DNA of 64,000 nucleotides, taken from Bacilli bacterium. GTDB lineage: Bacteria > Bacillota_I > Bacilli_A > RF39 > UBA660. The stretch spans positions 205,591 to 269,590 of the forward strand of contig JAFQQQ010000002.1 in NCBI GenBank assembly GCA_017410525.1, in the 5' to 3' direction. The translations under genes were made by a program, and so were the position numbers. Positions 5,146 to 64,000 of this stretch are shown here, piece by piece. How positions within the stretch are numbered: position 1 is the stretch's first letter; each line of letters opens with the position of its first letter. A model generated the notes under the pieces. It had not been told where the DNA came from and searched no databases. It worked only from the letters and a program-made list of their open reading frames with translations.

Positions 5146-5154
5146 GGTGATAAT

Positions 5155-47071: not shown

Positions 47072-47127
47072 AAAAGTTGTATAACTTTTTTTCTTTTTGC
47101 TCAATATAAAAAAGAAAGGAGATAGTT

Positions 47128-47659: not shown

Positions 47660-47721
47660 AGACTTATGTCTTTTTTTGTATACATAAAAATATTATGTTA
47701 ATACTAATATTGGTGATATGT

Positions 47722-49170: not shown

Positions 49171-49233
49171 ATACAAAGTATTTATTTTTTTATTTTGGTG
49201 TAGTATAATTTATATAGAAAGTAGAGTGGTTTA

Positions 49234-50241
49234 ATGAAAATATTAGTTACAGGTGGTACAGGTTATATTGGTAGTCATACTTGTGTTGAATTATTAGATG
49301 CAGGATATGAAATAGTAGTTATTGATAATTTATCTAATTCCAAAATAGAAGTAGTAGATAAAATAAAAGAAATAACAGGTAAAGAATTTAAATTTTATGA
49401 AGGAGATTGCTGTGATAAAAATATTTTAACTAAAATATTTGAAGAAAACGAAATATCTGCAGTAATACATTTTGCAGGTTTTAAAGCAGTAGGAGAATCT
49501 GTATTAAAACCTTTAAAATATTATAGAAATAATTTGGATTCAACAATAACTTTATTAGAAGTAATGAGTGAATATAGTATTAAAAAAATCGCATTCTCAT
49601 CAAGTGCTACAGTATATGGCAAACCGGAAACATTACCAATCAAAGAAGATTTCCCACTATCAACAACTAATCCTTATGGAACAACTAAGTTGATGATAGA
49701 AGATATACTTAGAGATTTGTATGTATCAGATAATGAATGGAGTATAGCTATACTTAGATACTTTAATCCAATAGGGGCTCATAAGTCAGGACTTATAGGA
49801 GAAAATCCTAATGATATTCCAAATAATTTAATGCCATATATAGTTAAAGTAGCGACACATGAACTTGAGTGTCTTAGTGTATTTGGAAATGACTATGATA
49901 CAAAAGATGGCACAGGTGTAAGAGACTATATTCATGTAGTAGATCTTGCTAAAGGACATATTAAAGCGTTAGAAAAAGTATTAAAAGATAAAGGTGTAGA
50001 TGCATATAACTTAGGTACAGGTAATGGATATAGTGTTTTAGAAATCGTTAATACATTTATGGATGTAAATAAGATAGATGTTAACTATAAAATAACAGAT
50101 AGAAGACCTGGAGACATAGATGCCTGTTATGCAGATCCAACTTATGCTAAAGAGAAACTTAATTGGGAAGCAAATCTAGGAATTGAAGAAATGTGTGAAG
50201 ATGCATATAACTTTGTTAAAAAATTTAAAGAAGACAAATAG
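49234..50241 (+). CDS. galE: UDP-glucose 4-epimerase
   Basis: MKILVTGGTGYIGSH, SSSATVYG, YGTTK (YxxxK), RPGD. Confidence 0.92.
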   Translation: MKILVTGGTGYIGSHTCVELLDAGYEIVVIDNLSNSKIEVVDKIKEITGKEFKFYEGDCCDKNILTKIFEENEISAVIHFAGFKAVGESVLKPLKYYRNNLDSTITLLEVMSEYSIKKIAFSSSATVYGKPETLPIKEDFPLSTTNPYGTTKLMIEDILRDLYVSDNEWSIAILRYFNPIGAHKSGLIGENPNDIPNNLMPYIVKVATHELECLSVFGNDYDTKDGTGVRDYIHVVDLAKGHIKALEKVLKDKGVDAYNLGTGNGYSVLEIVNTFMDVNKIDVNYKITDRRPGDIDACYADPTYAKEKLNWEANLGIEEMCEDAYNFVKKFKEDK

Positions 50242-50309
50242 TCTTCTTTTTGTTTAAAAAATATTTTCTTTTTAAATAAAGTGTGTTATAATTAATTAGT
50301 AATGAATCT

Positions 50310-50385
50310 GTCTCCTTAGCTCAGTTGGTAGAGCAACTGACTCTTAATCAGTGGGTCTAGGGTTCGAATCCCTAAGGGGACACCA
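50310..50385 (+). tRNA. tRNA-Lys (anticodon CUU)
   Basis: GTCTCCTTAGCTCAGTTGGTAGAGCAACTGACTCTTAATCAGTGGGTCTAGGGTTCGAATCCCTAAGGGGACACCA. A terminator follows at about 50396-50432. Confidence 0.92.
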
Positions 50386-50457
50386 TTGGATATTAAAGAT
50401 TCTTGGTTTAGATTCAAGAATCTTTTTATTATAATTTTGGATTAAAGAGGGATGATT

Positions 50458-50808
50458 ATGAAAAAGAAAGGTTTTACATTAGTTGAATTACTTGCTGTTT
50501 TAGTTATTTTATCTATTTTATCAATTATTGCTACAGTTACGGTTAGTTCTATATTAAATGATTCTAAAAGTTCACTTTCTGATAGGCAAAAAAGAAATAT
50601 AGAAAATGCTGCAGAAACTTATTATTTAAAAGAAGGCATGAACTCTAATGATATGTGTATTAGTGTTGAAGAACTAATAGAAAAAGGATACATTGATAGT
50701 GTTACTGTAAAAGATCCACAGGACAGGAAAGAAATGACTGGATATGTAAAAATAACTTATGCTTCAAATCAATATTCATATAAATATCAAGAAATTTCTT
50801 GTGAATAA
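50458..50808 (+). CDS. Type IV pilin / pseudopilin-like protein (prepilin-type N-terminal methylation motif)
   Basis: KKGFTLVELLAVLVILSIL: the G/F cleavage-methylation site with Glu at +5. Confidence 0.75.
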   Translation: MKKKGFTLVELLAVLVILSILSIIATVTVSSILNDSKSSLSDRQKRNIENAAETYYLKEGMNSNDMCISVEELIEKGYIDSVTVKDPQDRKEMTGYVKITYASNQYSYKYQEISCE

Positions 50809-50850
50809 AAATTAAAAATCTTCTCACAATATTAGTGGGAGGATTTTTTT

Positions 50851-51291
50851 ATGGAAAAAAAAGAATATAAAAAGATAGTAGATAAATATACTCCAGATGA
50901 ACCTAGATTTAGAAATGCATTGATTGCTTTTATAATAGGTGGATTTATGGGAGTGTTAGGTAATTTTTTAGTAGACTTTTATTCATCAACATTTGATTTA
51001 TCTAGTAAGGATGCTAGTGTATTTATGATTATTACTTTGGTTTTTTTAGGATGTTTTCTAACTTGTTTAGGATTTTTTGATAAATGGGTAGGGTTTGCTA
51101 AATGTGGACTTATTATACCTATAACAGGATTTGCACATGCTATGATGAGTGCAGCTTTAGAATATAGAAAAGAAGGTTTGGTAACGGGGATAGGTTCTAA
51201 TATGTTTAAACTTGCTGGTTCGGTAATTATATTTGGCGTTGTTTCAGCATACATATTTGGGCTTTTAAGATTACTTGTAATAGGAGGTTAA
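50851..51291 (+). CDS. spoVAC: Stage V sporulation protein AC
   Basis: YTPDEPRFRNALIAFIIGGFMGVLGNF and 4 TM helices, with spoVAD/AEb directly downstream. Confidence 0.88.
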   Translation: MEKKEYKKIVDKYTPDEPRFRNALIAFIIGGFMGVLGNFLVDFYSSTFDLSSKDASVFMIITLVFLGCFLTCLGFFDKWVGFAKCGLIIPITGFAHAMMSAALEYRKEGLVTGIGSNMFKLAGSVIIFGVVSAYIFGLLRLLVIGG

Positions 51292-51292
51292 T

Positions 51293-52282
51293 ATGACTTT
51301 TAAATATAATAATGTATATATAAATGAAACTAGTACAGTAGTTGGACCCTATGAAGCAAAAGGGCCTTTTTCTAAACTTTATGATAAGTGTTATAAAGAT
51401 TTTTATTTTAACGAAAAGACATGGGAACAAGCAGAAACTAAATTAATACAAGAAAGTGTAGAAATATTATTAAAAAAATCAAATAGGAAAAATAGTAAAA
51501 TTGATGTACATATTGGTGGTGACTTATTAAATCAAATAGTTGCGACTAATTATGCATCTGCTATAATAGGTATACCTTTAATAGGTATATATTCGGCGTG
51601 TGCAACGAGTAACTTAAGTTTATTACTTGCTAGTAATATGATAGAAGCAAATCAAATACAGAATGCTATAGTAACTGCATCCTCTCATAACAATAGTGCA
51701 GAAAAGCAATATAGAAACCCAGTAGAATATGGTGGGCCTAAAAAAGAATATTCAACATTTACAACTACAGGATGTGCTGCTTGTTATTTATCTAATGAAG
51801 AGTCAAAAATAAAAGTAGAGTCCGCAACCCTAGGCACAGTGGTTGATATGGGAATAACTGATGTATTTAATATGGGAGCAGTTATGGCTCCAGCAGCTGC
51901 TAAAGTAATAAATGACCATTTAAAAGATACTGGTAGAAAAATAGAATATTATGATTTAATACTTACTGGTGATTTAGGAGTAGTAGGTAAAATGATTTTA
52001 AAAGATTATATGAAACAGGAATATAATATTACTTTAAAAAATTATGATGATTCTGCTTGTATGATATTTGATATGGATACACAACCGGTTTATATGGGTG
52101 GTAGTGGAGTATCTTGTTTACCACTTGTTGCTTATACACACGTACTTAATAAAATGAAAAAAGGTGAGTTAAAGAAAGTTTTATTAGTTGCTACAGGTGC
52201 TTTAATGAATCCTACTATGTGTAATCAGCACTTATCTATACCTAGTATTGCTCATGCAATTAGTTTGGAGGCGGTTAAATGA
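51293..52282 (+). CDS. spoVAD: Stage V sporulation protein AD
   Basis: STVVGPYEAKGPF, a thiolase-like fold (YSACATS), 329 aa. Confidence 0.88.
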   Translation: MTFKYNNVYINETSTVVGPYEAKGPFSKLYDKCYKDFYFNEKTWEQAETKLIQESVEILLKKSNRKNSKIDVHIGGDLLNQIVATNYASAIIGIPLIGIYSACATSNLSLLLASNMIEANQIQNAIVTASSHNNSAEKQYRNPVEYGGPKKEYSTFTTTGCAACYLSNEESKIKVESATLGTVVDMGITDVFNMGAVMAPAAAKVINDHLKDTGRKIEYYDLILTGDLGVVGKMILKDYMKQEYNITLKNYDDSACMIFDMDTQPVYMGGSGVSCLPLVAYTHVLNKMKKGELKKVLLVATGALMNPTMCNQHLSIPSIAHAISLEAVK

Positions 52283-52629
52283 TACATTTTAATGCTTTTG
52301 TTTTTTGTGGTATAGTTTGTTTAATAGGACAAATAATACTTGACAATACTAAACTTACTCCTGGGCACATTACAACTATATTTGTAATAGTAGGAGCATT
52401 CTTAGATGTATTTAATATTTATGATAAATTTGTGCTTTGGGCAGGTGGTGGAGCTTTAGTACCAATAACTTCTTTCGGTCATTTACTTATACATGGTGCA
52501 ATGGATACTGTAAATAATTATGGTGTAATGGGATTATTTATGGGGATGTTTGATTTAACGTCTTCTGGAATAGTCGCTGCTATTATATTTTCGTTTGTTT
52601 TATCTTTAATTTTTCAACCTAGAGATTAA
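52279..52629 (+). CDS. spoVAE: Stage V sporulation protein AE (AEb-type)
   Basis: 116-aa, 3-4 TM, FVFCGIVCLIGQIILD. ATGA overlap with spoVAD. Confidence 0.85.
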   Translation: MIHFNAFVFCGIVCLIGQIILDNTKLTPGHITTIFVIVGAFLDVFNIYDKFVLWAGGGALVPITSFGHLLIHGAMDTVNNYGVMGLFMGMFDLTSSGIVAAIIFSFVLSLIFQPRD

Positions 52630-52720
52630 ATTTGTGTAAACTTAAAAATAATTTTTCAGAACTTATTGAAATTATAAAAAATATATGTTATAATTTGGTC
52701 ATAAAATAGGAGGTATGTTT

Positions 52721-52861
52721 ATGGCTAAAAGGGGTAGACCTTCAAATAAAGTTATAGCGAAAAGAAAAGTTGCTAAATCTAAAAGTGAATTATCACTATT
52801 AGTAGGAATTTTCTTCGTAGTTTTACTTTTAATACTAGGTTATTTCTTTTTAATTAAATAG
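52721..52861 (+). CDS. Small membrane protein (46 aa), not in the supplied track
   Basis: My translation is MAKRGRPSNKVIAKRKVAKSKSELSLLVGIFFVVLLLILGYFFLIK. RBS is TAGGAGGT. It has a basic N-terminus and one TM. Confidence 0.55.
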   Translation: MAKRGRPSNKVIAKRKVAKSKSELSLLVGIFFVVLLLILGYFFLIK

Positions 52862-53006
52862 AGTTATCTCTATTTTTTTTATTTAATTTTCATAAAAGAA
52901 AAAAGTGTTAAGTTTTTGTGTAAAAATATTGTAAATTTTACCAAAAATACTTGTTTTCGCTTTTTTTATTATGTATAATAAATTTGTATGTTAAAAGGAG
53001 GATTTT

Positions 53007-55640
53007 ATGACAAAATATGTTTATGCCTTTAAAGAAGGTAACAAAGACATGCGAAATTTGTTAGGTGGTAAAGGTGCTAACCTTGCTGAAATGACAGGTA
53101 TTGGACTTCCTGTTCCACAAGGATTTACTGTTACTACTGAAGCATGTATTAAGTATTATGATGATGGAGAAGATATATCTCAAGAAATCAAAGATGAAAT
53201 TTTAAGTCACTTAGAAGGACTTGAAAAAGAATCTGGAAAAAAATTTGGAGATATGGAAAATCCGTTATTAGTATCTGTTAGAAGTGGTGCTAGAGCATCT
53301 ATGCCAGGTATGATGGATACAGTTTTAAACTTAGGTTTGAATGATGAAGTTGCAAAAGGATTTGCTAAAGCTACAAACAATGCAAGATTTGTATACGATA
53401 GTTATAGAAGATTTATTCAAATGTTTGCTGATGTAGTTATGGGATTCCCAAAAAGTTCATTTGAAAGAAAATTTGATGCAATTAAAGAAGAAAAAAACGT
53501 TAAATTTGATACTGAATTAAGTGCTGAAGATTTAATGGAAGTTGTTGAAATTTACAAAAATGAATACAAAAATCATGCTGGTGTAGATTTTCCACAAGAT
53601 CCAAAAGATCAATTATTAGAAGCTGTAAAAGCTGTATTTAGAAGTTGGAATAATGATAGAGCAATCACTTATCGTAGATTAAATGATATTCCATCTAGTT
53701 GGGGAACTGCTGTTAACGTTCAAGAAATGGTTTATGGTAACCGTGGAGATGATTGTGGTACAGGTGTTGCATTTACAAGAAATCCAGCAACTGGAGAAAA
53801 GAAATTATACGGTGAATATTTAATGAATGCTCAAGGAGAAGATGTTGTTGCTGGTATTCGTACACCTCAAACAATTGATACTCTAAAAGAAGTTATGCCT
53901 GATTGCTATGATCAATTTGTAAAAATTTGTAATATTCTTGAAAATCATTACAAAGATATGCAAGATATGGAATTTACTATTGAAAACGGAAAACTTTTCA
54001 TGTTACAAACTCGTAATGGAAAAAGAACTGCTCAAGCTGCTTTAAAAATAGCTGTTGATTTAGTAAATGAAGGAATGATTTCTAAAGAAGAAGCTATTCT
54101 AAAAGTTGAACCAAAACAATTAGATCAATTATTACATCCAAACTTTGATGCTGCAAGCTTAAAGGCCGCTAAAGTAGTTGCAAAAGGTTTAGCTGCTTCT
54201 CCAGGAGCTGCAACTGGTAAAATTTACTTTACTGCAGAAGATGTTATGGAAGCTGCTAAACAAGGTGAAAAAGATATATTATTAGTTAGACTTGAAACTA
54301 GTCCAGAAGATATCGAAGGTATGAATATCGCTCACGGTATTTTAACTATCCGTGGTGGTATGACTAGCCATGCTGCAGTTGTTGCTCGTGGTATGGGTAC
54401 TTGCTGTGTATCTGGATGTGGTGAACTTGTAATAGATGAAGAAGCTAAAACTGTTAAAACAGTTGATGGTAAAGTATACAAAGAAGGAGACTGGATGAGC
54501 TTAGATGGTTCAACTGGTAATGTATACGGTGAACAAGTTAAAACTGTTGAACCAGAAATAAGCGGAGACTTTGAAACATTTATGGGATGGGCTGATAGTG
54601 TTAGAAGACTTAAAGTTAGAACTAATGCTGATTCACCAAGAGATGCAATTCAAGCTCGTAAATTTGGTGCTGAAGGTATAGGTCTATGCCGTACAGAACA
54701 CATGTTCTTTGAAGAAGAAAGAATTTTCAACTTCCGTAGAATGATTGCTGCTGATTCAGTAGAAATGAGAGAAGAAGCTTTAGAAAAAATCTTACCATAT
54801 CAAAGAAAAGATTTTGAAGGATTATTTGAAGCTATGGAAGGAGATCCTGTTGTAATTCGTTACTTAGATCCACCTTTACATGAATTCTTACCTCATACAG
54901 ATGCTGAAATTAAAGCTTTAGCTGAAAGTTTAGGAATGAGTTTTGAAGCATTAAAAAATCGTGTTGAATCATTAAAAGAATTCAATCCAATGATGGGACA
55001 TAGAGGATGTAGATTAGCTGTTACATATCCAGAAATAGCTAAAATGCAAACAAGAGCCGTTATTGAAGCTGCAATCAATGTAAATAAAAAAGGTATGAAC
55101 ATAATTCCTGAAATAATGATCCCACTTGTTGGAGATATTAATGAATTAAAATATGTTAAAAAAGTAGTTTGTGAAACTGCAGATGCTATAATTGCTGAAG
55201 CTGGGGTTGAACTTACTTACCATGTTGGAACAATGATAGAAATTCCAAGAGCTGCTGTTACAGCAGATGAAATAGCTAAAGAAGCTGAATTCTTCTCATT
55301 CGGAACTAATGACTTAACTCAAATGACATATGGTTTCTCAAGAGATGATGCTGCTAAATTCTTAAATGAATACTATACAAAAGGAATTTTTGAAAATGAT
55401 CCATTCGCTAAGTTAGATCAAAACGGTGTAGGTAAACTTGTTGAAATGGCTGCTAAACTTGGTAAATCAACTCGTCCTGATATCCATATGGGTATTTGTG
55501 GAGAACACGGTGGAGAACCAAGCAGTGTTGAATTCTGTCATAAGGTAGGACTTGACTATGTATCTTGTAGCCCATTCAGAGTACCTCTAGCTAGACTTGC
55601 TGCTGCACAAGCCTCTATCAAAGAAGGGATGAATAAGTAA
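53007..55640 (+). CDS. ppdK: Pyruvate, phosphate dikinase
   Basis: GGKGANLAEM, the phospho-His motif GGMTSHAAVVARGMG, GLCRTEHMF, FFSFGTNDLTQ. 877 aa. Noticeably less AT-rich codon usage than its neighbours. Confidence 0.97.
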   Translation: MTKYVYAFKEGNKDMRNLLGGKGANLAEMTGIGLPVPQGFTVTTEACIKYYDDGEDISQEIKDEILSHLEGLEKESGKKFGDMENPLLVSVRSGARASMPGMMDTVLNLGLNDEVAKGFAKATNNARFVYDSYRRFIQMFADVVMGFPKSSFERKFDAIKEEKNVKFDTELSAEDLMEVVEIYKNEYKNHAGVDFPQDPKDQLLEAVKAVFRSWNNDRAITYRRLNDIPSSWGTAVNVQEMVYGNRGDDCGTGVAFTRNPATGEKKLYGEYLMNAQGEDVVAGIRTPQTIDTLKEVMPDCYDQFVKICNILENHYKDMQDMEFTIENGKLFMLQTRNGKRTAQAALKIAVDLVNEGMISKEEAILKVEPKQLDQLLHPNFDAASLKAAKVVAKGLAASPGAATGKIYFTAEDVMEAAKQGEKDILLVRLETSPEDIEGMNIAHGILTIRGGMTSHAAVVARGMGTCCVSGCGELVIDEEAKTVKTVDGKVYKEGDWMSLDGSTGNVYGEQVKTVEPEISGDFETFMGWADSVRRLKVRTNADSPRDAIQARKFGAEGIGLCRTEHMFFEEERIFNFRRMIAADSVEMREEALEKILPYQRKDFEGLFEAMEGDPVVIRYLDPPLHEFLPHTDAEIKALAESLGMSFEALKNRVESLKEFNPMMGHRGCRLAVTYPEIAKMQTRAVIEAAINVNKKGMNIIPEIMIPLVGDINELKYVKKVVCETADAIIAEAGVELTYHVGTMIEIPRAAVTADEIAKEAEFFSFGTNDLTQMTYGFSRDDAAKFLNEYYTKGIFENDPFAKLDQNGVGKLVEMAAKLGKSTRPDIHMGICGEHGGEPSSVEFCHKVGLDYVSCSPFRVPLARLAAAQASIKEGMNK

Positions 55641-55763
55641 TTTAAAACGAAAATCGTTTTAATACCAATAAATATAAGGAATTAATATTGTAAAGATGTA
55701 TAATTCCTTGTAATTACAAATGTTCTTATAGGACAAATAAAAGTAAAAATATACAAAATATTA

Positions 55764-55806
55764 AAGACTAAGATGACTTATAGTTGCAAATCTTAGTCTT
55801 TTTTGT
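55764..55806 (+). terminator. Strong intrinsic terminator about 125 nt downstream of ppdK
   Basis: AAGACTAAGAT (55764-55774) pairs with ATCTTAGTCTT (55790-55800), followed by TTTTGT. Confidence 0.7.
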
Positions 55807-55839
55807 GCTTTGTGCGACAAGAATTTGGAGGTATTAAAA

Positions 55840-56301
55840 ATGCGATTATTGTACACTAAACCAGAATTAAAAGATTTATCCCAAGGATCAAGAATAGCGT
55901 TTGTCAGACAATTTAGATTGATGACACAAGATGAAGTATCGGATAAATTAGGATTAACAGGTGAATGTAAAAGAAGAACAATGACAAGATATGAGAAGGG
56001 AGAAAGAAATCCAAAAGATGATAGAACTTATGAATTATCTAAAATATTAAAAGTTAATTACAATGCAATAAAAAAATATGATTTCAAAGATCAATCAGAT
56101 ATACTTTATACTTTAATGTGGTTAGAAGAGTTGCTTCCTCGTTACCAAATAGATTTATCGAGAATACCAAGCATTAATGATGATAATATCATTAAATTTA
56201 AAGAATTCATCAATGAATGGGAAGAAATGAGGACAAAAAGATTTAAAAGAGAAATTTCTTACGAGCAATATGTTGAATGGAAGTTAAATTTAGAGGTGTA
56301 G
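55840..56301 (+). CDS. XRE-type HTH domain protein
   Basis: IAFVRQFRLMTQDEVSDKLGL...MTRYEKGERNP. ATG at 55840 preferred (GGAGGT RBS). Confidence 0.65.
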   Translation: MRLLYTKPELKDLSQGSRIAFVRQFRLMTQDEVSDKLGLTGECKRRTMTRYEKGERNPKDDRTYELSKILKVNYNAIKKYDFKDQSDILYTLMWLEELLPRYQIDLSRIPSINDDNIIKFKEFINEWEEMRTKRFKREISYEQYVEWKLNLEV

Positions 56302-56305
56302 TAGT

Positions 56306-57166
56306 ATGTTAGAAAAAATAGATTTGTTAAAAATTGATGGTTTTAAAAATCATCCTTATAAAGTTAATGATGATGAATCTTTAAAAGAACTTGCAAGTAG
56401 TATTAAAGAAAATGGATTGCTGAATCCTTTAATAGTAAGATTAAAGTCAAATGGTAGATATGAACTAATATCAGGACATAGAAGAAAAAAAGCAATGGAG
56501 TCAATAGGAATATCAGAAGCGGAAGTATATGTAAAAAAATTGTCTGACGAAGAAGCTACGATAGAAATGGTTGATTCTAATATGTACAGAGAAAAAGTTT
56601 TACCATCAGAAAAAGCGTTTGCATATAAAATGAAATTAGAAGCATTAAAGCATCAAGGTAAATCTTTGTCCCCTAAGGGAACTAAATCTCATACGGTAGA
56701 TGAAATAGATGATACAAAAACTCAAATTTATAGATATGTAAGATTGACTTATTTAATCCCAGAATTATTACAATTAGTTGATGATACTGTTTTAAAGGAC
56801 AAAAGAGCAGTTTTAACGATGGGTTTAAAACCAGCGGTAGAATTATCATATTTAACAAAAGAAGAGCAAAAATTGGTATATATGGGGATTACATACGAGG
56901 ATTTAACTCCAAGTCATGCTCAAACAATAGAAATAAGAAAATTAAGTAAATCAAAAAAATTGGATTTTAATAGTTTAGAAGATATTTTATGTCAAAAAAA
57001 AGGAAATCAAAACGATCAAATATCATTTAATAAAGATAAAATAGAATCGGTTTTACCAACAGAATTATTGAAAAGAGATAAAAGATATATTGAACGATAT
57101 ATAATAAAAGCAATTATAGAGTATAAAAAAATGAAAATTGTTGAAGAAGATGAATTGGATTTTTAA
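56306..57166 (+). CDS. ParB/Srx-fold N-terminal domain protein (ParB-like nuclease family)
   Basis: NPLIVRLKSNGRYELISGHRRKKAM (ParB box GxRR) followed by a helical C-terminus. Confidence 0.75.
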   Translation: MLEKIDLLKIDGFKNHPYKVNDDESLKELASSIKENGLLNPLIVRLKSNGRYELISGHRRKKAMESIGISEAEVYVKKLSDEEATIEMVDSNMYREKVLPSEKAFAYKMKLEALKHQGKSLSPKGTKSHTVDEIDDTKTQIYRYVRLTYLIPELLQLVDDTVLKDKRAVLTMGLKPAVELSYLTKEEQKLVYMGITYEDLTPSHAQTIEIRKLSKSKKLDFNSLEDILCQKKGNQNDQISFNKDKIESVLPTELLKRDKRYIERYIIKAIIEYKKMKIVEEDELDF

Positions 57167-57190
57167 ATAAAGTAAAGAAAGGGTGATAAT

Positions 57191-58015
57191 ATGGTTTTTA
57201 AGGTGGAAAAAAATAAGAATTATACAGTAATGAGTAATTACCATTTGAGAGATAAAAACTTATCTTTGAAAGCAAAAGGCTTATTATCATTTATGCTTAG
57301 TTTACCAGATGATTGGGATTACTCATTAAATGGTTTATGTTCTATATGTAAAGAATCTGAAGGAGCAATAAAAAGTACATTAAAAGAGTTAAAAGATAAT
57401 GGATATTTGGTTATAGAAAAAGTACGAGGGGAAAAGGGATATTTTGAATATAACTATATTATTTATGAACATCCATATACATTAGAAAAGGAGAAAAACA
57501 ATCCAGAGGGTAAAAATCCACCTGTGGATTATCCAATGGTGGAAAATCATACCCAAATAAATACTAATGAACAAAGTATTAAAGAACAAATAGATAGAAT
57601 AGATAAAACCATAAATGAAGATGAGGAAAAAATTTCTTCATCTTTTTCTTTAGAAGAACATCACGCTATAACTAAAGATTTAGTTGAAAGAGAATATTTA
57701 GCAGAAGATGATGTAGAACTATACAAGTATGATAAATTTTTTAAGGAAATTTTAAAAAAACAAAAATTTACTGATGTAATTTCTATAACTCACTATATTA
57801 TTTCTAGTGTTAAAAGTCGGCATTTTATAGATGAGTTTGATAATAAGATAGAGAATAAATTTGGATATTTAAAAACATCAATTGAAAATAATATTGAAAT
57901 GTTTAAAAGACGTGAAATAGAATGGGATGATGAATTAGGATGGTTTAGGGAAGTGGATAACGATGATAAAGAATTAGATTCTTTTTATGACGATTTTGAT
58001 TATGAAATAACATAA
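57191..58015 (+). CDS. Replication-initiator-like winged-helix protein (HTH_36/RepA_N-like N-terminus)
   Basis: YTVMSNYHLRDKNLSLKAKGLLSFMLSLPDDWDYSLNGL...LKELKDNGYLVIEKVR matches the pattern common in element-borne Rep/DnaD-like proteins. The family name is from memory. Confidence 0.6.
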   Translation: MVFKVEKNKNYTVMSNYHLRDKNLSLKAKGLLSFMLSLPDDWDYSLNGLCSICKESEGAIKSTLKELKDNGYLVIEKVRGEKGYFEYNYIIYEHPYTLEKEKNNPEGKNPPVDYPMVENHTQINTNEQSIKEQIDRIDKTINEDEEKISSSFSLEEHHAITKDLVEREYLAEDDVELYKYDKFFKEILKKQKFTDVISITHYIISSVKSRHFIDEFDNKIENKFGYLKTSIENNIEMFKRREIEWDDELGWFREVDNDDKELDSFYDDFDYEIT

Positions 58016-58046
58016 AAAAAGACTAAAATCAGTCTTTAGGAATATG

Positions 58047-58445
58047 TTACTTCTCAATCAATTTTTCGGCAAAACTATGTAGCATTTCAAGGTTTATATC
58101 GCTTAAATTTTTTGCGATTTCAAATATGCTATATAAATTTGAATTTTTTCTGATAATGATGGCATCAACATTTTTTAAGTCATCTTCAGAAAATGTACTT
58201 CCAGTCTGGTTAAATATAGCTTCTTTTAATTGAAAAGAATCTCTAAAACCTAAACCTTTACTAATTTTTTTTAATGTTATACTGCTTATGTTACCGCTAT
58301 GCTTTTTAGACTCTAAATCATTAATTACCATTCTTGAAATTTCGCATTTATCTGCAAATTCTCTAGCACTCATCGTTGGATGAAATGATTTACGATAATT
58401 ATTAATGTAAGAGCCAAGTGCATCTACAAATGCTTTGTCTTCCAT
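58047..58445 (-). CDS. XRE-family HTH regulator (divergent from the downstream + strand genes)
   Basis: MSAREFADKCEISRMVINDLESKK HTH. A minus-strand gene facing a 436-bp divergent control region. Confidence 0.65.
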   Translation of the reverse strand: MEDKAFVDALGSYINNYRKSFHPTMSAREFADKCEISRMVINDLESKKHSGNISSITLKKISKGLGFRDSFQLKEAIFNQTGSTFSEDDLKNVDAIIIRKNSNLYSIFEIAKNLSDINLEMLHSFAEKLIEK

Positions 58446-58687
58446 ATCCTATCGCCTTTCTTTTGTTCTTTTACTACATTACCATTTTACACTTTTTTTG
58501 AATTTTTGTCCACATAACGCTATGAAATTCATTTTTAAAAAATTAAATTATGAAAATGGACATTTTTAATATTATTTGTTATGATAATAATGTAGTAAAT
58601 AGTCTTTAAAAAAATATGGGAGGATAGAAATGTTTAAATCAAAACTTGTGATGCTTTCATTTCTGACCAAAGAAAGGAGGAGCAAGA

Positions 58688-58855
58688 TTGCAAGAGCAAG
58701 AAGGTTCTAATGTTGTTAAAAGCATCAAGATTGAAGTGATAAGTGGGGAAAAAAAAGGTGTAAACTTATTAACGCAGTTTAGTGAGGTAGAAACAATTAG
58801 AATATTAAAGCAGTGTCTTATATCGTTAGAAAGGGAGGCATCACAAAACCAGTAG
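58688..58855 (+). CDS. Possible small ORF (55 aa, TTG start)
   Basis: My translation is MQEQEGSNVVKSIKIEVISGEKKGVNLLTQFSEVETIRILKQCLISLEREASQNQ, with RBS AAAGGAGGAGCAAGA. A competing 26-codon ATG ORF (58630-58710, RBS GGGAGGA) overlaps it. Confidence 0.35.
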   Translation: MQEQEGSNVVKSIKIEVISGEKKGVNLLTQFSEVETIRILKQCLISLEREASQNQ

Positions 58856-58881
58856 TACCGATTAAGGAAGGAAAATGATAT

Positions 58882-59193
58882 ATGACTAAAGAAAGTAATG
58901 AAGTAGTATCAGAAGTAAATGCAGTAATTAGTAGTATTAGAAGTAAGGTTCAACAAGAAGAAAAAATTACAGTAGATGAAATTGATAATTTATCTACTAC
59001 TGTTAATCAACTAATCACTGATTATAGAACAGTATTAAATGACTATCTTGTAATGAACTCTTTAGCAGTAAAACATGATAAGTTTTTAGAAGTAATTGGT
59101 ATTATAGAATTTGCTTCTGCAAATGATGTTAGAATTTTAGATCAAACAATTAAATCCTTAGAAAAGGTTGTTAAAACAATAAAGCAGAGGTAA
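58882..59193 (+). CDS. Hypothetical helical protein
   Basis: 103-aa ORF with RBS AAGGAAGGAA. Terminator ACTGTGTGGA/TCTACACAGT plus T-run at about 59203-59238. Confidence 0.55.
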   Translation: MTKESNEVVSEVNAVISSIRSKVQQEEKITVDEIDNLSTTVNQLITDYRTVLNDYLVMNSLAVKHDKFLEVIGIIEFASANDVRILDQTIKSLEKVVKTIKQR

Positions 59194-59282
59194 ATAAAAT
59201 ATACTGTGTGGAAAAAAATTCTACACAGTTTTATTTTTGGATATTGACATTTATAAAAAAATAATGTATCCTTTTATTGTAA

Positions 59283-59302
59283 GTGGCAGTTCAAACTGAC
59301 AC
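59283..59302. repeat. Palindrome-containing site, left member of an inverted pair
   Basis: GTGGCAGTTCAAACTGACAC matches the reverse complement of 59520-59539 at 18 of 20 positions. It is embedded in a 10-bp outer inverted repeat, CTTTTATTGT (59271-59280) / ACAATAAAAG (59301-59310). Confidence 0.75.
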
Positions 59303-59519
59303 AATAAAAGAAGGAGGGGATTGAAAAATTTGTAATAGGAGAGAGGTATAGAGTTTTTAATGAAGTATCCGAAAATCATGGAAACTATCTCACAATTATC
59401 AACATAAATAAAGACTTAATATATTATTTATTTGATGGTAGCGATCAGGTTCAATGTTTTTCAAGTAGTAGTGAATTTGCAGTTGACCTTATTAAGTTGG
59501 TCTAATTTTTTTAAAATAA

Positions 59520-59539
59520 CTGTCAGTTTGAACTGACAC
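59520..59539. repeat. Palindrome-containing site, right member, just upstream of the 59553 ORF RBS
   Basis: CTGTCAGTTTGAACTGACAC. The core GTCAGTTTGAACTGAC is a perfect 16-bp palindrome. Confidence 0.75.
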
Positions 59540-59552
59540 GAAAGGAACTACG

Positions 59553-59813
59553 ATGAAAAAAATTAAGAAAGAAAGATCAGTACCAAAATGGGTTTTACGA
59601 AATCTACGATTGTATGGGAATTGTTGTTGTGGATACGATTTAATAAAAAAATATGGTGAAAAGAAATTATTAGAAAAATTAGTTAAATTTGGATTTGAAT
59701 GTAGTTTAAGAGTTGTACCAGATCCAGATGCAAGAACAAGAAGAAAAATGAAATATCCACCATCAGCTTACTATATTTTAGAAGTTGATAAGGTACTGAT
59801 TACTAACAAATAA
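59553..59813 (+). CDS. Hypothetical 86-aa protein in the antitoxin position upstream of MazF
   Basis: MKKIKKERSVPKWVLRNLRLYGNCCCGYDLIKKYGEKKLLEKLVKFGFECSLRVVPDPDARTRRKMKY... Its stop TAA (59811-59813) abuts the MazF TTG start. I can see no AbrB/RHH/MazE-like pattern. Confidence 0.55.
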   Translation: MKKIKKERSVPKWVLRNLRLYGNCCCGYDLIKKYGEKKLLEKLVKFGFECSLRVVPDPDARTRRKMKYPPSAYYILEVDKVLITNK

Positions 59814-60194
59814 TTGTTTTTATCAGTAAAGAAAGGTGAAGTTTATTTAATCGATTTGAAGGATACATATTCAAATGTCCAATGTGGGAAAAGACCTTGT
59901 TTAGTCATTCAAAACGATTATGGTAATGAATATTCACCGACAACAATAGTAGTTCCCATTACAACAAAAATTAAGAAGACTTATATGCCTGTTCATGTAG
60001 TTATTGAAAAGGGAAGTTATTCTAATAAGGATCGAGAAATGGTTTTATGTGAATGTATCTTAACAGTATCAAAAGATCAAATAATTAATCATTTAAGAAC
60101 TTTTGATGAAGATACGATGCAGAAAATTGATAAGGCTTTAGAAGTATCATTAGGAATTGGCGTGAAAGGGAGGAATCAAAAATTAAAAAGTTAA
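59814..60194 (+). CDS. mazF: MazF/PemK-family endoribonuclease toxin
   Basis: KKGEVYLIDLKDTYSNVQCGKRPCLVIQNDYGNEYSPTTIVVPITT matches the PemK signature. The TTG start is translationally coupled to the upstream ORF. Confidence 0.8.
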   Translation: MFLSVKKGEVYLIDLKDTYSNVQCGKRPCLVIQNDYGNEYSPTTIVVPITTKIKKTYMPVHVVIEKGSYSNKDREMVLCECILTVSKDQIINHLRTFDEDTMQKIDKALEVSLGIGVKGRNQKLKS

Positions 60195-60265
60195 AAGAGA
60201 CGTATAATGATATTTTTAGTAAAGGTATTGAAAATTATTGGAAGTCTGAAGGTTGTAATAGTAGG

Positions 60266-60832
60266 ATGCAAAAATACTTTAAATTTGCAAACTTACTAGA
60301 TAGTATTAATGTAGTTTTAAAATATATAATGATTATTTGTCTTAATATTATTGCAACAATGACAATTTTTAAACTATCTTCAGGAATTTATTTGACAGAA
60401 ATGGTTAAAGAAACAACAACTTTAACTGTAATGGATATTATTTTTCAACAAGGAGGCTTTATAGTTATTGGTTGTTTATATTTTGTTTTAGGGTTAAGAT
60501 ACGGAAAACGAAATAAAGACAGTTTTGGTAAGATAATGTATAAAGTTTTATATGGTATGCCAATGTATTATTTAATATATCTAAATATGTGTTTGATGGA
60601 TGGTTTAACAGGAATAATGATATTCTTAATTCTTTATTTAATTATTGTTAATATAAACTTTTTAATAAGTAAAAGAATAAAAGAGTTATATAATGTTGCA
60701 ACAGGTAATATTGGAACAGAAGAATATGAAAAAGAATTAGAAGAAGTAGATGTAGTATTTACAAAACAAGAAGTTGAAAATAAGGATAATAAAAAAGGAA
60801 GAGGAGATAAAAAATATGCAAGGAAGCGTTAA
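60266..60832 (+). CDS. Hypothetical membrane protein (about 4 TM) with a charged C-terminal tail
   Basis: Hydrophobic segments [42 protein letters not shown] and [18 protein letters not shown]. No family recognised. Confidence 0.5.
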
Positions 60833-61037
60833 ATGGTTTAGTGATAAATTAGGATATGGATTTATTGTTTGTGAAGATTTAGATGAGGAAGTATTTGTTC
60901 ATTTTAGCGAAATACAAATGGATGGATATAAGTCTTTAAAAGAAGGAGATATTGTAAGTTTTGATTATGACACAGAAGTTGGAAAAGCTAAAAATGTCAA
61001 TGTTATCAAAAATGAAAAGTTAGAAACTTCTAAGTAG
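60816..61037 (+). CDS. csp: Cold-shock protein (CspA family)
   Basis: [50 protein letters not shown] (RNP1-like KGYGFI, RNP2-like VFVHF). ATG at 60816 preferred (GGAAGAGGAG RBS). Confidence 0.85.
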
Positions 61038-61507
61038 TGAATTTTATTGGTGCAGTAGTGCATTATTCCGTTGACTGTGTAGATGAATCTAAAACAGCAG
61101 AAAACGGAAGAGAAATTTGTAGTCAGTATAGACCACTTGTAGAAAAAAGAATTAAAAGATTATTAGCAACACCAATGAACTCTGCAAGTATTGTACTTTT
61201 TACATCTGGAAATAGAAGTAAAAATTCTTTTGAAGAAAAACTAATACAAAGAGTTGCTTGGAATGATGATCAGATAACTAATTTTATGAATAACATTTTG
61301 TTATTAGAACAATATGATAAAATGGCAGGTTTATATTTGAAACTTAAATATATTTATGATAAAACTGATAAACAAATTGCAAAAAAAATGAAAGTAACAG
61401 ATAGAACTTTAAGAACTTATAAAACAAGGGCGTATTTTCAAATTGCAGTGTGGTCTAATAAAGTTGAATATATTTATAACAAAACTTTTCATTTTAATAT
61501 TGATTGA
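61037..61507 (+). CDS. Sigma-70 region-4-like HTH protein (element-type sigma/regulator)
   Basis: C-terminus KTDKQIAKKMKVTDRTLRTYKTRAYFQIA resembles a sigma region 4.2 HTH. GTG start abuts the csp stop. Confidence 0.5.
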   Translation: MNFIGAVVHYSVDCVDESKTAENGREICSQYRPLVEKRIKRLLATPMNSASIVLFTSGNRSKNSFEEKLIQRVAWNDDQITNFMNNILLLEQYDKMAGLYLKLKYIYDKTDKQIAKKMKVTDRTLRTYKTRAYFQIAVWSNKVEYIYNKTFHFNID

Positions 61508-61563
61508 TATATTTGATGTGGAAATATCCACATCCTGCTACATACAAAGGAGTTGAATATTTT

Positions 61564-62712
61564 ATGAAAAAAAGAAATATTTTAATTATTAGTGCATTAA
61601 TAGTAGTATTAGTATCTATTGGTATATATTTATTTATACAACATACAAATAAAATAACTTTAAAGGAATCTAATTTTATTTTTGAACTTGGGGATAAAGT
61701 TCCTTTTGAAGTTGAATATTATTTAAAAGATAAGGATAAAGATAAAATATCAAATTCAAAAATAAGATTTGAAAATGATGCAATGTTTGATACTTCAAAC
61801 AATGAAATTAGAACAATAGATTCAAAGTTTTTAGATGTTGGAAAATATAAAATGTATATTGAGTATAAGGATACTAAGTATCACTTTAATATTAAAGTGA
61901 AAGATACAACAGCACCTAATTTTATTGATTTTATGGATGAAATTATATTAGAACAAAATGCTGTAAATGTAGATTTGTTAAAATATTATGAAGCATCTGA
62001 TTTAAGTAGTTTAACGATAAGCATTGAAAGTGATTATGATATTGAAAAAACTGGTGAATATAAAGCAATAATTAAATCTAAAGATGTTTATGATAATATA
62101 GTTACAAAAGATGCAACAATTAAAGTAATTTCTTATGATGATTTAAAAAATACAGAAGTAACGAAATGCTTAGATGGTACAATATTTAAAAGTGAAAAAA
62201 GAATTGAATCAGAAAAGAAAAAAATAGAAACTAATCAATCTAGTTCTAATAATAATACAACCCCTAAAATAGAAATAGTTGATAATAACAACAATAGTAA
62301 TAATTCAAAGAATGAATCAAATAACAATAGTTCTAGTTCATCATCTAATAATACTCCAACTATTGTTAATGCTACATATAGAACAGATATTTCAAATGAA
62401 ATAGTAAATAAGATAAATGAATATCGTAAAAATAATGGTCAAACTGTGTTACCTGTAACTTCTGAAGCACAAGCTGAAGCTGACAGGAGAGCAAAGGAAA
62501 TTGTATCAAATCCTACTCATGAAGGTTCTTCTTATGGTTTTGGGGAAAATATAGGTGGAGGAGGAATTGGTACTGATTTCTTCACATTATGGAAAGAAAG
62601 TTTTTCCCACAATAACGCAATGTTAAGAGAGCAAAATACAGCAATAGCAGTAAGTATATATCAATATAATAATCAATGGTATGCAGTTGCTGTTTTTAGA
62701 ATGAATTATTAA
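61564..62712 (+). CDS. Membrane-anchored secreted protein with a C-terminal CAP/SCP (YkwD-like) domain
   Basis: N-terminal TM (ILIISALIVVLVSIGIYLFI), a middle beta-rich region, an Asn/Ser low-complexity linker, then YRKNNG...AEADRRAKEI...HEGS...GENIG...WKESFSHNNAML. ATG at 61564 preferred (AAGGAG RBS). Confidence 0.7.
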   Translation: MKKRNILIISALIVVLVSIGIYLFIQHTNKITLKESNFIFELGDKVPFEVEYYLKDKDKDKISNSKIRFENDAMFDTSNNEIRTIDSKFLDVGKYKMYIEYKDTKYHFNIKVKDTTAPNFIDFMDEIILEQNAVNVDLLKYYEASDLSSLTISIESDYDIEKTGEYKAIIKSKDVYDNIVTKDATIKVISYDDLKNTEVTKCLDGTIFKSEKRIESEKKKIETNQSSSNNNTTPKIEIVDNNNNSNNSKNESNNNSSSSSSNNTPTIVNATYRTDISNEIVNKINEYRKNNGQTVLPVTSEAQAEADRRAKEIVSNPTHEGSSYGFGENIGGGGIGTDFFTLWKESFSHNNAMLREQNTAIAVSIYQYNNQWYAVAVFRMNY

Positions 62713-62747
62713 AATTTCTCAATATGGGAAATTTTTTTATGCAAGAA

Positions 62748-62769
62748 ATTATGTGGAATTCCACATAAT
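62748..62769. repeat. Perfect 22-bp palindrome ATTATGTGGAATTCCACATAAT
   Basis: Read directly and self-complementary over 62748-62769. Half-site TTATGTGGAA recurs at 62792-62806 and, inverted, at 62844-62858. Confidence 0.85.
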
Positions 62770-62791
62770 ATTTTTTATGTAGAACTTTTAG

Positions 62792-62858
62792 TTATGTGGA
62801 ACTTTTATAAAAAACATCTTGTAATTAAGGCGTTTCTATTATAAAAAGTTCCACATAA
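62792..62858. repeat. 15-bp perfect inverted repeat pair TTATGTGGAACTTTT / AAAAGTTCCACATAA, 37 bp apart, abutting the recombinase gene 3' end
   Basis: 62792-62806 and 62844-62858 are exact reverse complements. Confidence 0.85.
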
Positions 62859-62865
62859 TTTTTTT

Positions 62866-63867
62866 CTATTTCATATTATTTTTCAACCAACTATCTAAAT
62901 TGTCTTTTTTAGTATTACTATATTTACTTTTAGTGTTTATCGTTTCTGAATTTCTAAGAATTTCTTGTCTTTGCTTTTTCGAATCTGGAGTTGCATATAT
63001 CTCTGTTGATGTTATTGAACTATGACCTAGAAATTCTTTAACATATAAAAGCGGAGTTCCATTATTATACAAATGTGTTGCTTTGGTATGTCTAAAACTA
63101 TGAGGATGATAATTTCCATTGAATTTATCTGGATATATTAAATTTAATTTTAAAACTATTTTTTTAATCATTTTATTAATACTATATCTTGAATATTTTT
63201 TCTTATAATTAGAATAAAATAAATAATCATCTCCATAGTTAATATAAAATTCTTTTAAATATTTATTGATTAACTTTACTAATTCTTGACTGATAGGTAC
63301 AATTCTAGTTTTATTACCTTTGCCATATAAAGTAATACTTGCATTATCAGATAAATTTAAGTCATCTAATTTAATATTTATTAATTCAGTTACTCTTGCC
63401 CCTGTTTCATAAAGTACACATATCATCGTTAATTTTTTTAAATCTTTGATACTGTTTAAATAATTTATCATTGTTTTTATTTCATTTTCTGTAAAATATG
63501 ATATCATTTTATTAGGAACCTTTTTATTCTTAATACTAAGAATTTGAGAACAAGATCCAAATAAATCAGGTTCGTTTATTTGGACATACTTGTAAAATGA
63601 TTTTATACAAGCAAGTCTTTGGTTCCTAGTTTGTATTGAAACAGTTCTATCTGTTTCTAACCAATCTAGAAATTGGATTATTACTTCCTTAGTAATTGAT
63701 TCAATTTCTATTTTATTTGGTTTAATATTTTTTTCTTTATTCATAAATTCTAACAACAAATAAAATGTAGTTGAATATGATGATTTAGTGTTCATTGAAT
63801 AATTACATTCACCAATTAAATAACTTGTAAGAAATTCTTGAACTAATTTACTAAATCTATTAGTCAC
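62866..63867 (-). CDS. Tyrosine site-specific recombinase (XerC/D / phage-integrase family)
   Basis: SAM-like N-terminal domain. ETGARVTEL (catalytic Arg context), HSFRHTKATHL (HxxR), LGHSSITSTEIYA (catalytic Tyr). GTG start. Confidence 0.85.
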   Translation of the reverse strand: MTNRFSKLVQEFLTSYLIGECNYSMNTKSSYSTTFYLLLEFMNKEKNIKPNKIEIESITKEVIIQFLDWLETDRTVSIQTRNQRLACIKSFYKYVQINEPDLFGSCSQILSIKNKKVPNKMISYFTENEIKTMINYLNSIKDLKKLTMICVLYETGARVTELINIKLDDLNLSDNASITLYGKGNKTRIVPISQELVKLINKYLKEFYINYGDDYLFYSNYKKKYSRYSINKMIKKIVLKLNLIYPDKFNGNYHPHSFRHTKATHLYNNGTPLLYVKEFLGHSSITSTEIYATPDSKKQRQEILRNSETINTKSKYSNTKKDNLDSWLKNNMK

Positions 63868-64000
63868 CTAAATCACCCCCTCATATAAACTTTTAGAAAA
63901 AGTATCATTAGCATCGATAATTTTATTTTTATTATAATCAGTAAAATGAAGATAGTATTCTGTTTCATGAATACTTTTATGTCCCATATATTTATAAAGA
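63868..64000 (-). CDS. C-terminal end of a second tyrosine recombinase (5' part beyond the window)
   Basis: My reverse-complement translation is ...LYKYMGHKSIHETEYYLHFTDYNKNKIIDANDTFSKSLYEGVI*. It shows the LGH...T..YxH catalytic-Tyr motif. The TAG stop (63868-63870) abuts the GTG of the downstream recombinase. Confidence 0.7.
   Translation of the reverse strand, partial: LYKYMGHKSIHETEYYLHFTDYNKNKIIDANDTFSKSLYEGVI

Follow-up and report, generated by a model that had tools for sequence, protein, structure and literature searches.

The DNA examined here, called the window throughout, is a stretch of 64,000 nucleotides (nt) from a Bacilli bacterium of the UBA660 lineage (assembly GCA_017410525.1, contig JAFQQQ010000002.1, positions 205,591 to 269,590 of the forward strand). 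Its guanine-cytosine (GC) content lies at about 0.22-0.33 and nearly all of its genes are on the plus strand. It includes spoVAC, spoVAD, spoVAE and ppdK (53007-55640), and ppdK is followed, up to the right end of the window, by a block of accessory genes that ends with tyrosine recombinase genes on the opposite strand. The block does not differ from its flanks in composition (GC 0.22-0.29). An earlier note, written from the sequence of the window alone, had interpreted it as a single integrative or mobilisable element carrying tandem tyrosine recombinases, and every gene of the series that it listed was recovered at the position it gave. Our analysis indicates that the region consists of two nested mobile elements, one inserted in ppdK (hereafter element 1) and a recombinase-in-trio (RIT) element inserted within element 1, an interpretation to which we assign a probability of about 0.8.

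Element 1 in ppdK and its empty site

The left junction of element 1 lies at 55612|55613, directly after a 14-nt core, GCTGCTGCACAAGC (55599-55612, plus strand), which encodes AAAQA inside the 3' end of ppdK and constitutes attL. Across hosts, the core takes the general form GCTGCTGC(A/T)CAAGC, and it is also kept in ppdK genes that carry no element. The segment 55613-55640 (plus strand) is an element-borne replacement of the ppdK 3' end, a 9-codon tail that ends the protein with ...SIKEGMNK* instead of the native ...VVKENQ*. The sequence of this tail was identical in every element-bearing contig, regardless of the ppdK allele, and the sequence common to all these contigs after the core is CTCTATCAAAGAAGGGATGAATAAGTAA. 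A non-coding leader follows (55641-55839, plus strand), with two hairpins and a further hairpin with a T-run at 55765-55804. This last structure resembles the native ppdK terminator of element-free hosts and could be a captured ancestral terminator.

The earlier note had proposed a search among relatives for an empty site, and this search was successful. Contig L122 is 99.92% identical to positions 43007-55612 of the window and diverges from 55613 onwards. Past the core it reads ...CAAGC|TGTAGTTAAAGAAAATCAATAA, with the native tail, a terminator and host genes (encoding proteins of 238 and 262 aa, a hydrolase, Smr and PriA), and no block; L122 is the empty site of element 1 in the same host. 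Among the PpdK homologues, a protein of 875 aa (P0002) ending in ...AVVKENQ equals the window protein except for the tail. Two more distant contigs (L113 and L114, ppdK 92% identical at the nucleotide level) are colinear with the window up to 55642 and also lack the block.

At least eight ppdK backgrounds, which are 71-94% identical to each other over their last 370 nt, carry element 1 at 97-100% identity, and in all eight the identity switches at the same 14-nt core. Two of these host backgrounds were each recovered from two samples. A diverged copy (80-90% identical at the nucleotide level) with the same 18-gene order occupies the same ppdK site in GCA_045545595.1. The block is thus mobile DNA, as had been suspected: it is absent from a 99.92% identical host and found at one fixed ppdK site in at least eight hosts. 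The alternative named in the earlier note, a block present in all relatives together with housekeeping Xer recombinases, does not describe what was found, since the block is missing from some relatives and the recombinases score at about half the Xer cut-offs. These results show that element 1 is an integrative element, of the kind of integrative and conjugative elements (ICEs), integrative and mobilisable elements (IMEs) or genomic islands, inserted in the ppdK 3' end at a conserved core and bringing its own replacement of the last codons. Site-specific insertion, an empty site and horizontal spread, which characterise integrative elements, were all observed.

Two ideas were dropped during the work. 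Contigs L022 and L025 had been taken as a "sister lineage" 89-92% identical to the window; their identity profile gave 77% in ppdK and about 100% in the block, with the switch near the ppdK stop codon. An interpretation of the block as a fixed remnant in decay, entertained at first, was also abandoned. As regards the surroundings of the site, an Xer-like recombinase gene and a thymidine kinase gene, and not the spoVA operon, precede ppdK in several host lineages (L022 537-2046; L118 752-2650; L043 5134-7033), and synteny is poorly conserved on both sides of ppdK throughout the clade.

The recombinase trio and its ends

The right end of the window contains 1,256 bp (62745-64000, minus strand) of a RIT element of 3,184 bp, whose full span would be 62745-65928 and corresponds to positions 2546-5729 of contig L001. 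Contigs L001 to L003, which continue past the window end, were found by exact-protein look-up. In L001 the three recombinase genes lie on one strand as ritA (2683-3666), ritB (3656-4606) and ritC (4607-5608); ritA and ritB overlap by 11 nt, and ritB abuts ritC. In the window, ritC (333 aa) occupies 62866-63867 on the minus strand, with a GTG start at 63867 and a Phage_integrase match (E-value 7e-39), and the 3' end of ritB (316 aa in full) occupies 63868-64000 on the same strand. The visible RitB C-terminus, ...LYKYMGHKSIHETEYYLH..., contains the tyrosine-recombinase motif (LGH...Y). The ritB stop codon TAG (63870-63868) directly precedes the ritC GTG, an abutment that the earlier note had described correctly; its count of two recombinase genes was one too low, the third, ritA (327 aa), lying to the right of the window end.

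The three proteins correspond one to one to the RitA, RitB and RitC families, which bears out a passing mention of recombinase-in-trio elements in that note. In BLASTP comparisons with the trios of pHG1 and Ruminococcus albus, matched pairs scored 132-137 bits (A-A), 103-108 bits (B-B) and 191-203 bits (C-C), and cross-pairs at most 69 bits. The concatenated trio matched 75 plasmid trios colinearly, that of pHG1 included. The R-K-H-R-H-Y catalytic set is complete in all three proteins, as judged from an alignment guided by an XerD sequence. RitC has 42 residues after the catalytic tyrosine (40-43 in reference RitC proteins, 19 in XerD) and aligns with pHG1 RitC to its end. The best NCBIfam matches were XerA, XerC and XerD, at about half the cut-off (XerC, 167 versus 335 bits; XerD, 164 versus 330 bits).

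Comparison of occupied and empty sites defined the insertion exactly. In 14 copies of element 1 that lack the RIT element, the gene for the CAP-domain protein is followed directly by that for a 157-aa protein, with an uninterrupted spacer. This empty site reads ...TTTTTTTATGCAATAAAAAAATCAATCC... and contains a single AATAAA; its junction sequence is ...TTTTTTTATGCAATAAAAAAATC.... The occupied site, with the inserted 3,184 bp in brackets, reads ...ATGCAA[GAAATTATGTGGAATTCC ... GTTCTACATAAAA]TAAAAAAATC..., which places the RIT element in the spacer that separates two convergent terminators, that of the CAP gene and that of the next element-1 gene. Contigs L020 and L024 break exactly at 62744, and sample ERZ28653904 holds both alleles (L003 occupied, L019 empty). 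Judged from this natural polymorphism, the RIT element moves as a unit. Because it is an independent, polymorphic insertion with repeats of its own, it is not the integrase module of the block.

Fourteen related trios (70-98% amino acid identity) were found in other gut metagenome-assembled genomes. All keep the A-B-C order, none shares flanks with the window, and they often make up stand-alone contigs of about 3 kb. A metagenome scan for the exact RIT tip returned only one further, diverged RIT element (L117). Contig CALVQY010000008.1 (L012 8070-14631) contains two different RIT trios in end-to-end arrangement, with about 25 nt separating the ritC tip of the one from the palindrome of the next; RIT elements may target sequences that resemble their own sites.

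A repeat search identified inverted repeats of about 107 nt at the ends of the trio (L001 2546-2652 and 5594-5701). Read from the ritC tip inwards, the order is AAGAAA, m1, m2, the 6 nt TATTTT, m3 (TTATGTAGAAC), 6 nt, m4 (TTATGTGGAAC), about 45 nt, and an inverted copy of the motif by the ritC stop codon. In the window, the hexamer AAGAAA occupies 62743-62748 at the left junction, and its partner AATAAA stands at the other junction, beyond the window. The motifs m1 (TTATGTGGAA) and m2 (TTCCACATAA) form a perfect 20-nt palindrome (62749-62768) that lies outside the inverted repeat, at the ritC end, and is not present in the empty site. On the ritC side, the arm of the inverted repeat spans 62773-62880 and includes m3 (62775-62785), m4 (62792-62802) and the inverted inner motif (62848-62858); the ritA side matches the ritC side from m3 inwards. 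The 11-nt motif occurs three times in the window, where 0.11 occurrences are expected, and only at the RIT end.

The spacing of the motifs is conserved beyond their sequence. Offsets of 0, 14, 26, 43 and about 102 nt are identical in relatives with a changed motif (GTTAAG, GTCTAAC or GTAGAAA) and in a distant R. albus RIT element that has the motif TAATGTAAAG and proteins of 30-35% identity. The pHG1 element has TTATGT motifs and an end palindrome in common with the window copy. Three lineages have the palindrome at the ritC end, and another three have it at the ritA end. Between m2 and m3, the layout is that of a dif-type core, with inverted arms that start with TTAT... around a 6-bp centre, and the RIT motif TTATGTNNAAC resembles the XerD arm of dif in E. 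coli (TTATGTTAAAT) and B. subtilis (TTATGTAAACT).

The 6 nt outside the outermost motifs are direct repeats that match at five or six of six positions in seven insertions: AAGAAA/AATAAA in the window, AAAAGA/AAAATA in L008, ATTAAA/ATTTAA in L016, AAAAAA/AAAAAA in both L012 and L013, and AATCTC/AATCTC and AATCTC/AATCTT in the first and second R. albus copies. On the R. albus 7 plasmids pRUMAL02 (L123) and pRUMAL01 (L124), the same RIT element stands at the same position of two diverged DDE-transposase-like genes, and in the pRUMAL01 copy the RitA gene is fragmented. In five relatives (L006, L007, L008, L012 and L016), the RIT repeats mostly hold a hairpin of 8-9 bp with an inward T-run in the interval from the outer to the inner motifs, and the lineages differ there by compensatory changes. 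This hairpin may be an insulating terminator; the window copy has no clear hairpin at that place.

The geometry of the ends suggests a possible route of movement. The three Xer-like recombinases would bind the repeated 11-nt motif TTATGT(A/G)GAAC, and once the tips were joined, two inverted arms would flank a 6-bp centre in a dif-like core, GTTCTACATAA-AAGAAA-TTATGTGGAAT. The predicted circle junction is ...GTTCTACATAA-AA(G/T)AAA-TTATGTGGAATTCCACATAA.... Strand exchange over the 6-bp centre with a matching target hexamer (here AATAAA, identical at five of six positions) would insert the RIT element and leave the hexamer on both sides, and hexamer pairs with one mismatch would reflect the resolution of heteroduplexes. 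In this scheme, RIT elements would move as circles through dif-like cores in which the outermost motif and one palindrome arm serve as the arms around the 6-bp centre, the target hexamer would have to match at five or six of six positions, and a compact RitA with one core-binding domain would represent a minimal version of the system. The palindrome would offer two alternative cores, a proposal that could account for the difference between lineages that have it at the ritC end and close relatives that have it at the ritA end. We regard this scheme as tentative and give it somewhat less than an even chance.

Content and extent of element 1 and alternative explanations

Element 1 begins with a conserved module of about 10.0 kb, counted from the core, which ends at the same nucleotide in all copies, just past the terminator of a gene for a 75-aa protein. 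The module encodes four XRE-type proteins, one ArpU-like protein, a ParB-like protein, a Rep-like winged-helix protein, a MazF toxin pair, a cold-shock protein, a CAP-domain protein and six proteins without family match. In the window, it starts with an HTH_19/XRE regulator of 153 aa (55840-56301, plus strand; Pfam HTH_19, 2.4e-7) that has an alternative TTG start at 55810. A ParB-like protein of 286 aa follows (56306-57166, plus strand; ParB_N, 5.9e-17; phrog_4715, 4.6e-38; TIGR00180, 86.5 bits), with a GHRR motif (...LISGHRRKKA), and then a winged-helix protein of 274 aa that resembles replication initiators (57191-58015, plus strand; HTH_36, 3.4e-9; phrog_4707, phrog_428 and phrog_186). This Rep-like protein is 44% identical to the N-terminal part of DUF6017 proteins encoded next to VirD4 genes on Enterococcus plasmids and 43% identical to a phage replication initiator; it had no match in a scan of viral contigs.

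A divergent XRE-type, repressor-like protein of 132 aa is encoded at 58047-58445 (minus strand; HTH_3, 1.9e-5). Between its gene and the small open reading frames (ORFs) that follow, a divergent pair of promoter-like sequences was noticed, TGGACA-17-TAAAAT at 58484-58512 (minus strand) and TGGACA-17-TATGAT with a TG at 58557-58585 (plus strand); as consensus matches only, they give an arrangement like that of a lysogeny-type switch. The two small ORFs (55 and 103 aa; 58688-59193, plus strand) are kept in all copies of the element and had no family match in Pfam, PHROG or PADLOC searches. The segment 59553-60194 (plus strand) encodes a putative toxin-antitoxin pair, in which an 86-aa ORF abuts a PemK/MazF gene (59814-60194; PemK_toxin, 5e-26) and is a putative antitoxin gene by its position. 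For the proteins without family match and the toxin pair, PADLOC returned nothing beyond generic HTH matches.

Further to the right, a hydrophobic 188-aa protein and a cold-shock protein (73 aa, 60816-61037; CSD, 3.9e-23) are encoded at 60266-61037 (plus strand), followed by an activator-like protein of 156 aa (61037-61507, plus strand; phrog_248, 3.8e-10). The gene called sigma-region-4-like in the earlier note is present, and its label is weak: the Sigma70_r4_2 match (E = 0.002) is below the cut-off, and the sequence appears to fit an ArpU-type phage activator better, even if the TIGR01637 score of 27.8 bits is also below its cut-off of 43.1. The last gene before the RIT element encodes a CAP-domain protein of 382 aa (61564-62712, plus strand; CAP, 4e-7), secreted or membrane-anchored, with an N-terminal hydrophobic segment, and has a terminator hairpin at about 62713-62740. 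This protein varies between strains, for which reason an exact-protein look-up with it was unsuccessful. The ParB-like and CAP genes are split in some copies of the element (L033 1183-2044 and 6446-7594; L035 6663-7756), so that both appear dispensable for its persistence. Pfam gave no match for the 157-, 180- and 237-aa proteins of the element, and the 237-aa protein had no tblastn match in phages either. Rfam, run at a permissive threshold, found nothing in 55600-64000, and megablast of 55641-64000 gave no DNA match in phage (50,697 records) and plasmid collections.

At least five different continuations were found to the right of the conserved module. The one found in this host is a type I restriction-modification system, hsdR-hsdM-hsdS, and since these genes follow the module here and are not found downstream of ppdK in the empty host, they belong to the inserted DNA. 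The module is thus followed by strain-variable cargo, shown in this host to be a restriction-modification system. Between module and hsdR, a two-gene DUF4230 cassette bounded by a repeated terminator-like sequence of about 32 nt is present in L030 (7025-8444) when compared with L027 (14587-14618), which suggests cassette exchange at a hot spot. The 311-kb scaffold L027 ends, past hsdR-hsdM, in an inverted hsdS fragment (19052-19699, minus strand), possibly a phase-variable specificity locus at which the assembly broke off.

The proteins most similar to the ParB-like protein (40-48% identity) are encoded at the start of ICE-like regions (ParA-ParB-SpaA adhesin-TnpV-SNF2), two of them directly after ppdK in other Firmicutes. 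As these relatives open ICE-like regions and the Rep-like protein resembles DUF6017 proteins (next to VirD4) and phage initiators, we interpret 55613-62744 as the left arm, for regulation and maintenance, of an element of the ICE/IME type. The integrase of element 1 and any transfer genes would then lie to the right. Element 1 would excise and integrate by site-specific recombination with a recombinase encoded in the unseen right part, perhaps a serine or tyrosine integrase as in the Clostridial ICEs that begin with ParA/ParB; ParB and Rep would serve the maintenance or replication of the excised form, and transfer would need unseen conjugation genes or a helper. The predicted right end consists of a second GCTGCTGCNCAAGC followed by TGTAGTTAAAGAAAATCAATAA, and the predicted circle junction of the right end, the core and CTCTATCAAAG. 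The predicted attR sequence (core plus TGTAGTTAAAG) was not found in a scan of viral contigs. In two IMG/VR contigs (L072 5919-15178 and L077 32-10247) and a Monoglobus record (L125), ppdK is followed by ParA and ParB (42% identical to the window protein) and then by a SpaA adhesin or by phage-like genes that include one for an integrase of 460 aa. In more distant Firmicutes, the ppdK 3' region may be a recurrent target for ParB-bearing elements; in L072 and L077, the ParB-linked elements beside ppdK showed no flanking direct repeats.

Four other explanations were considered. In the first, the module of about 10 kb is the whole of element 1, moved by a host or helper enzyme or by a novel recombinase among its six ORFs without family match, and the DNA to its right is host DNA or the product of later insertions. 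The common end nucleotide with at least five unrelated continuations fits this explanation, as does GCA_045545595.1, in which the module is followed after 34 nt by ordinary-looking genes (DAGK, AI-2E transporter). It nevertheless predicts that a simple insertion leaves the core and the native ppdK tail at the right end, where neither is present, and it would need a second insertion at the same point to explain hsdRMS, which follows the module here and is not next to ppdK in the empty strain. We consider it unlikely, while giving it some weight.

According to the second explanation, the block is not self-mobile; it is passed on as part of a chromosomal segment exchanged by homologous recombination, for which ppdK provides the homology on the left. 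No integrase was seen, the left end of the element carries a ppdK-like tail and a hairpin like the ppdK terminator, and the region downstream of ppdK is variable in all lineages, all of which would agree with such exchange. Homologous recombination should nevertheless produce scattered crossovers and donor-type stretches of ppdK, and none was seen in the identity profile; the switch falls at the same 14-nt core in eight backgrounds whose ppdK genes differ by 6-29%, and an identity of 70-77% is very low for exchange of this type. This explanation therefore appears quite improbable.

Still less probable is the single element of the earlier note, with the tandem recombinases as its integrase module. 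The recombinases do lie inside accessory DNA, near its visible end, and multi-recombinase modules are known in Tn554 and in GInt/SE elements. On the other hand, 14 copies of the block from several hosts, 97-100% identical, are without the trio and have an uninterrupted spacer between the CAP and 157-aa genes; the trio is bounded by separate inverted repeats of about 107 nt and is found alone on contigs of about 3 kb and in unrelated contexts; and the junction of block and host in ppdK, 7 kb away, has no sequence in common with the RIT ends. The recombinases thus form a self-contained 3,184-bp element and do not belong to one element with the block. Finally, the notion of housekeeping Xer proteins, or of a DNA-invertase set controlling the nearby restriction-modification genes, with no transposon involved, has next to no probability, since the XerA, XerC and XerD matches reach only about half of the curated cut-offs, the genes are absent from strains with hsdRMS, from 14 element copies and from L122, the host has a separate Xer-like gene elsewhere (L122 21802) and the trio equals RitA, RitB and RitC one to one, whatever the inverted hsdS fragment about 6 kb away in L027 may suggest.

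Several observations weigh against the interpretation as two nested elements or against the scheme proposed for RIT movement. Extension to the right, as advised in the earlier note, reached the RIT trio and hsdRMS, and in the approximately 15 kb of inserted DNA reached outside the RIT element it revealed no integrase, recombinase, relaxase, conjugation or packaging gene. The absence of conjugation and relaxase genes from the visible part, which that note had remarked upon, was confirmed among the window proteins, and VirB4, coupling protein and relaxase genes were found neither in the window nor in L027 to L036. A second core copy (attR, with up to two mismatches) or a displaced ppdK tail was not detected in the right-hand loci over about 15 kb, and when the two ends of the conserved module were compared for att-like direct repeats, nothing but a trivial AT-rich match of 19 nt appeared. 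The module ends sharply at a terminator and has at least five different continuations, which in hosts other than this one could be host flanks and not cargo. Neither a circular form or attP of element 1 nor a circle junction of the RIT element was seen, and a true empty site is available for only one RIT insertion. In AT-rich terminator spacers, chance matches between A-rich hexamers are easily obtained (AAAAAA/AAAAAA accounts for two of the seven pairs), and the internal spacer TATTTT of the window copy does not match the outer hexamers. Parts of the RIT end architecture may already have been described (Ricker et al. 2013). Lastly, RitA has 173 residues before the first catalytic arginine, compared with 251-264 in reference RitA proteins and 147-160 in single-domain proteins, and its alignment begins at residue 91 of pHG1 RitA. 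The RitA family has two successive core-binding domains (Smyshlyaev 2021); because the N-terminus is shorter than in reference RitA by about 90 residues, the RitA described here probably has one such domain and not two.

Comparison with known systems and biological significance

RIT elements have reportedly been found in Cupriavidus metallidurans CH34 and on pHG1 of C. necator, in work by Van Houdt (2009 and 2012) and Ricker (2013). The element described here agrees with them in the A-B-C gene order, the one-to-one best matches to RitA, RitB and RitC, the full catalytic sets and the TTATGT motif common to the pHG1 ends. Terminal inverted repeats and a palindrome at one end are also present, as reported (PMC3414803), and the size is similar (about 3.2 kb here, about 3.5 kb reported). 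It differs in the length of RitA (327 aa versus 403-420 aa), in the inverted repeats (about 107 nt versus 28-34 bp for the archetype; PMC10214605, PMC3414803), in its host, an uncultured lineage of gut Bacilli, and in the gene junctions, where an 11-nt A/B overlap and abutting B/C genes replace the reported overlaps of 4-8 nt, tight coupling being common to both. The defining features of RIT elements are present, except a two-domain RitA; the extra C-terminal helix of RitC may be present as well, to judge from the 42 residues after the tyrosine.

Tn554 of Staphylococcus, to which the recombinases had also been likened, shares several tyrosine recombinases, the lack of a classical target duplication and junction nucleotides that are carried along (PMC10214605). 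The likeness does not extend further, since Tn554 has two recombinases (one of them long) with TnpC, resistance cargo and no terminal inverted repeats, whereas the element described here has three RitA/B/C orthologues of 316-333 aa, inverted repeats of 107 nt, no cargo and no TnpC-like gene. GInt/SE elements of Gammaproteobacteria also combine three recombinase-like genes with site-specific insertion (PMC10214605), but they have a fourth essential gene and tens of kb of cargo, compared with three genes only here. The dif/Xer system and integrative mobile elements exploiting Xer (IMEX) show the same inverted arms 6 bp apart, and RitC is Xer-like; in contrast to them, the RIT element encodes its own recombinases, is not located at a chromosomal dif site and has extra direct and inverted copies of its motif.

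Element 1 resembles Tn1549-like and Clostridial ICEs in the ParB-like protein (40-43%) and the HTH_36 protein (44% to DUF6017) near one end, the MazF-type toxin, the fixed site in a conserved gene and the variable cargo, but ParA is lacking, and no VirD4, VirB4, relaxase or integrase was present in the approximately 15 kb reached. With prophage remnants and phage-inducible islands it shares a divergent XRE switch, a phage-type initiator, an ArpU-like activator and a small size; it differs from prophages and phage satellites in having no integrase, terminase, capsid or packaging genes, its PHROG matches being limited to regulators, ParB and the initiator. The literature searches made gave no description of the ppdK 3' end as an integration target. 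Both elements belong to known kinds of mobile DNA, and neither is a new kind of system.

In a 2023 comparison of tyrosine-recombinase transposons, the target specificity, empty site and mode of movement of RIT elements were given as "not tested" (PMC10214605). The value of the junction data lies in the fact that no experiment has yet reproduced RIT movement: the exact pair of empty and occupied sites, the conserved site geometry and the 6-nt junction rule can be tested with metagenomic reads or in vitro. If true, the proposed scheme would for the first time provide this class of transposons with a concrete mechanism and a target rule that can be tested. As for element 1, it reveals that a module of about 10 kb was exchanged very recently among uncultured, spore-forming Bacilli of the gut, at least eight lineages of species level being involved, and the target gene ppdK stays intact through the element-borne tail. 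Element 1 is a useful marker, and a possible vector, for organisms that have so far remained uncultured.

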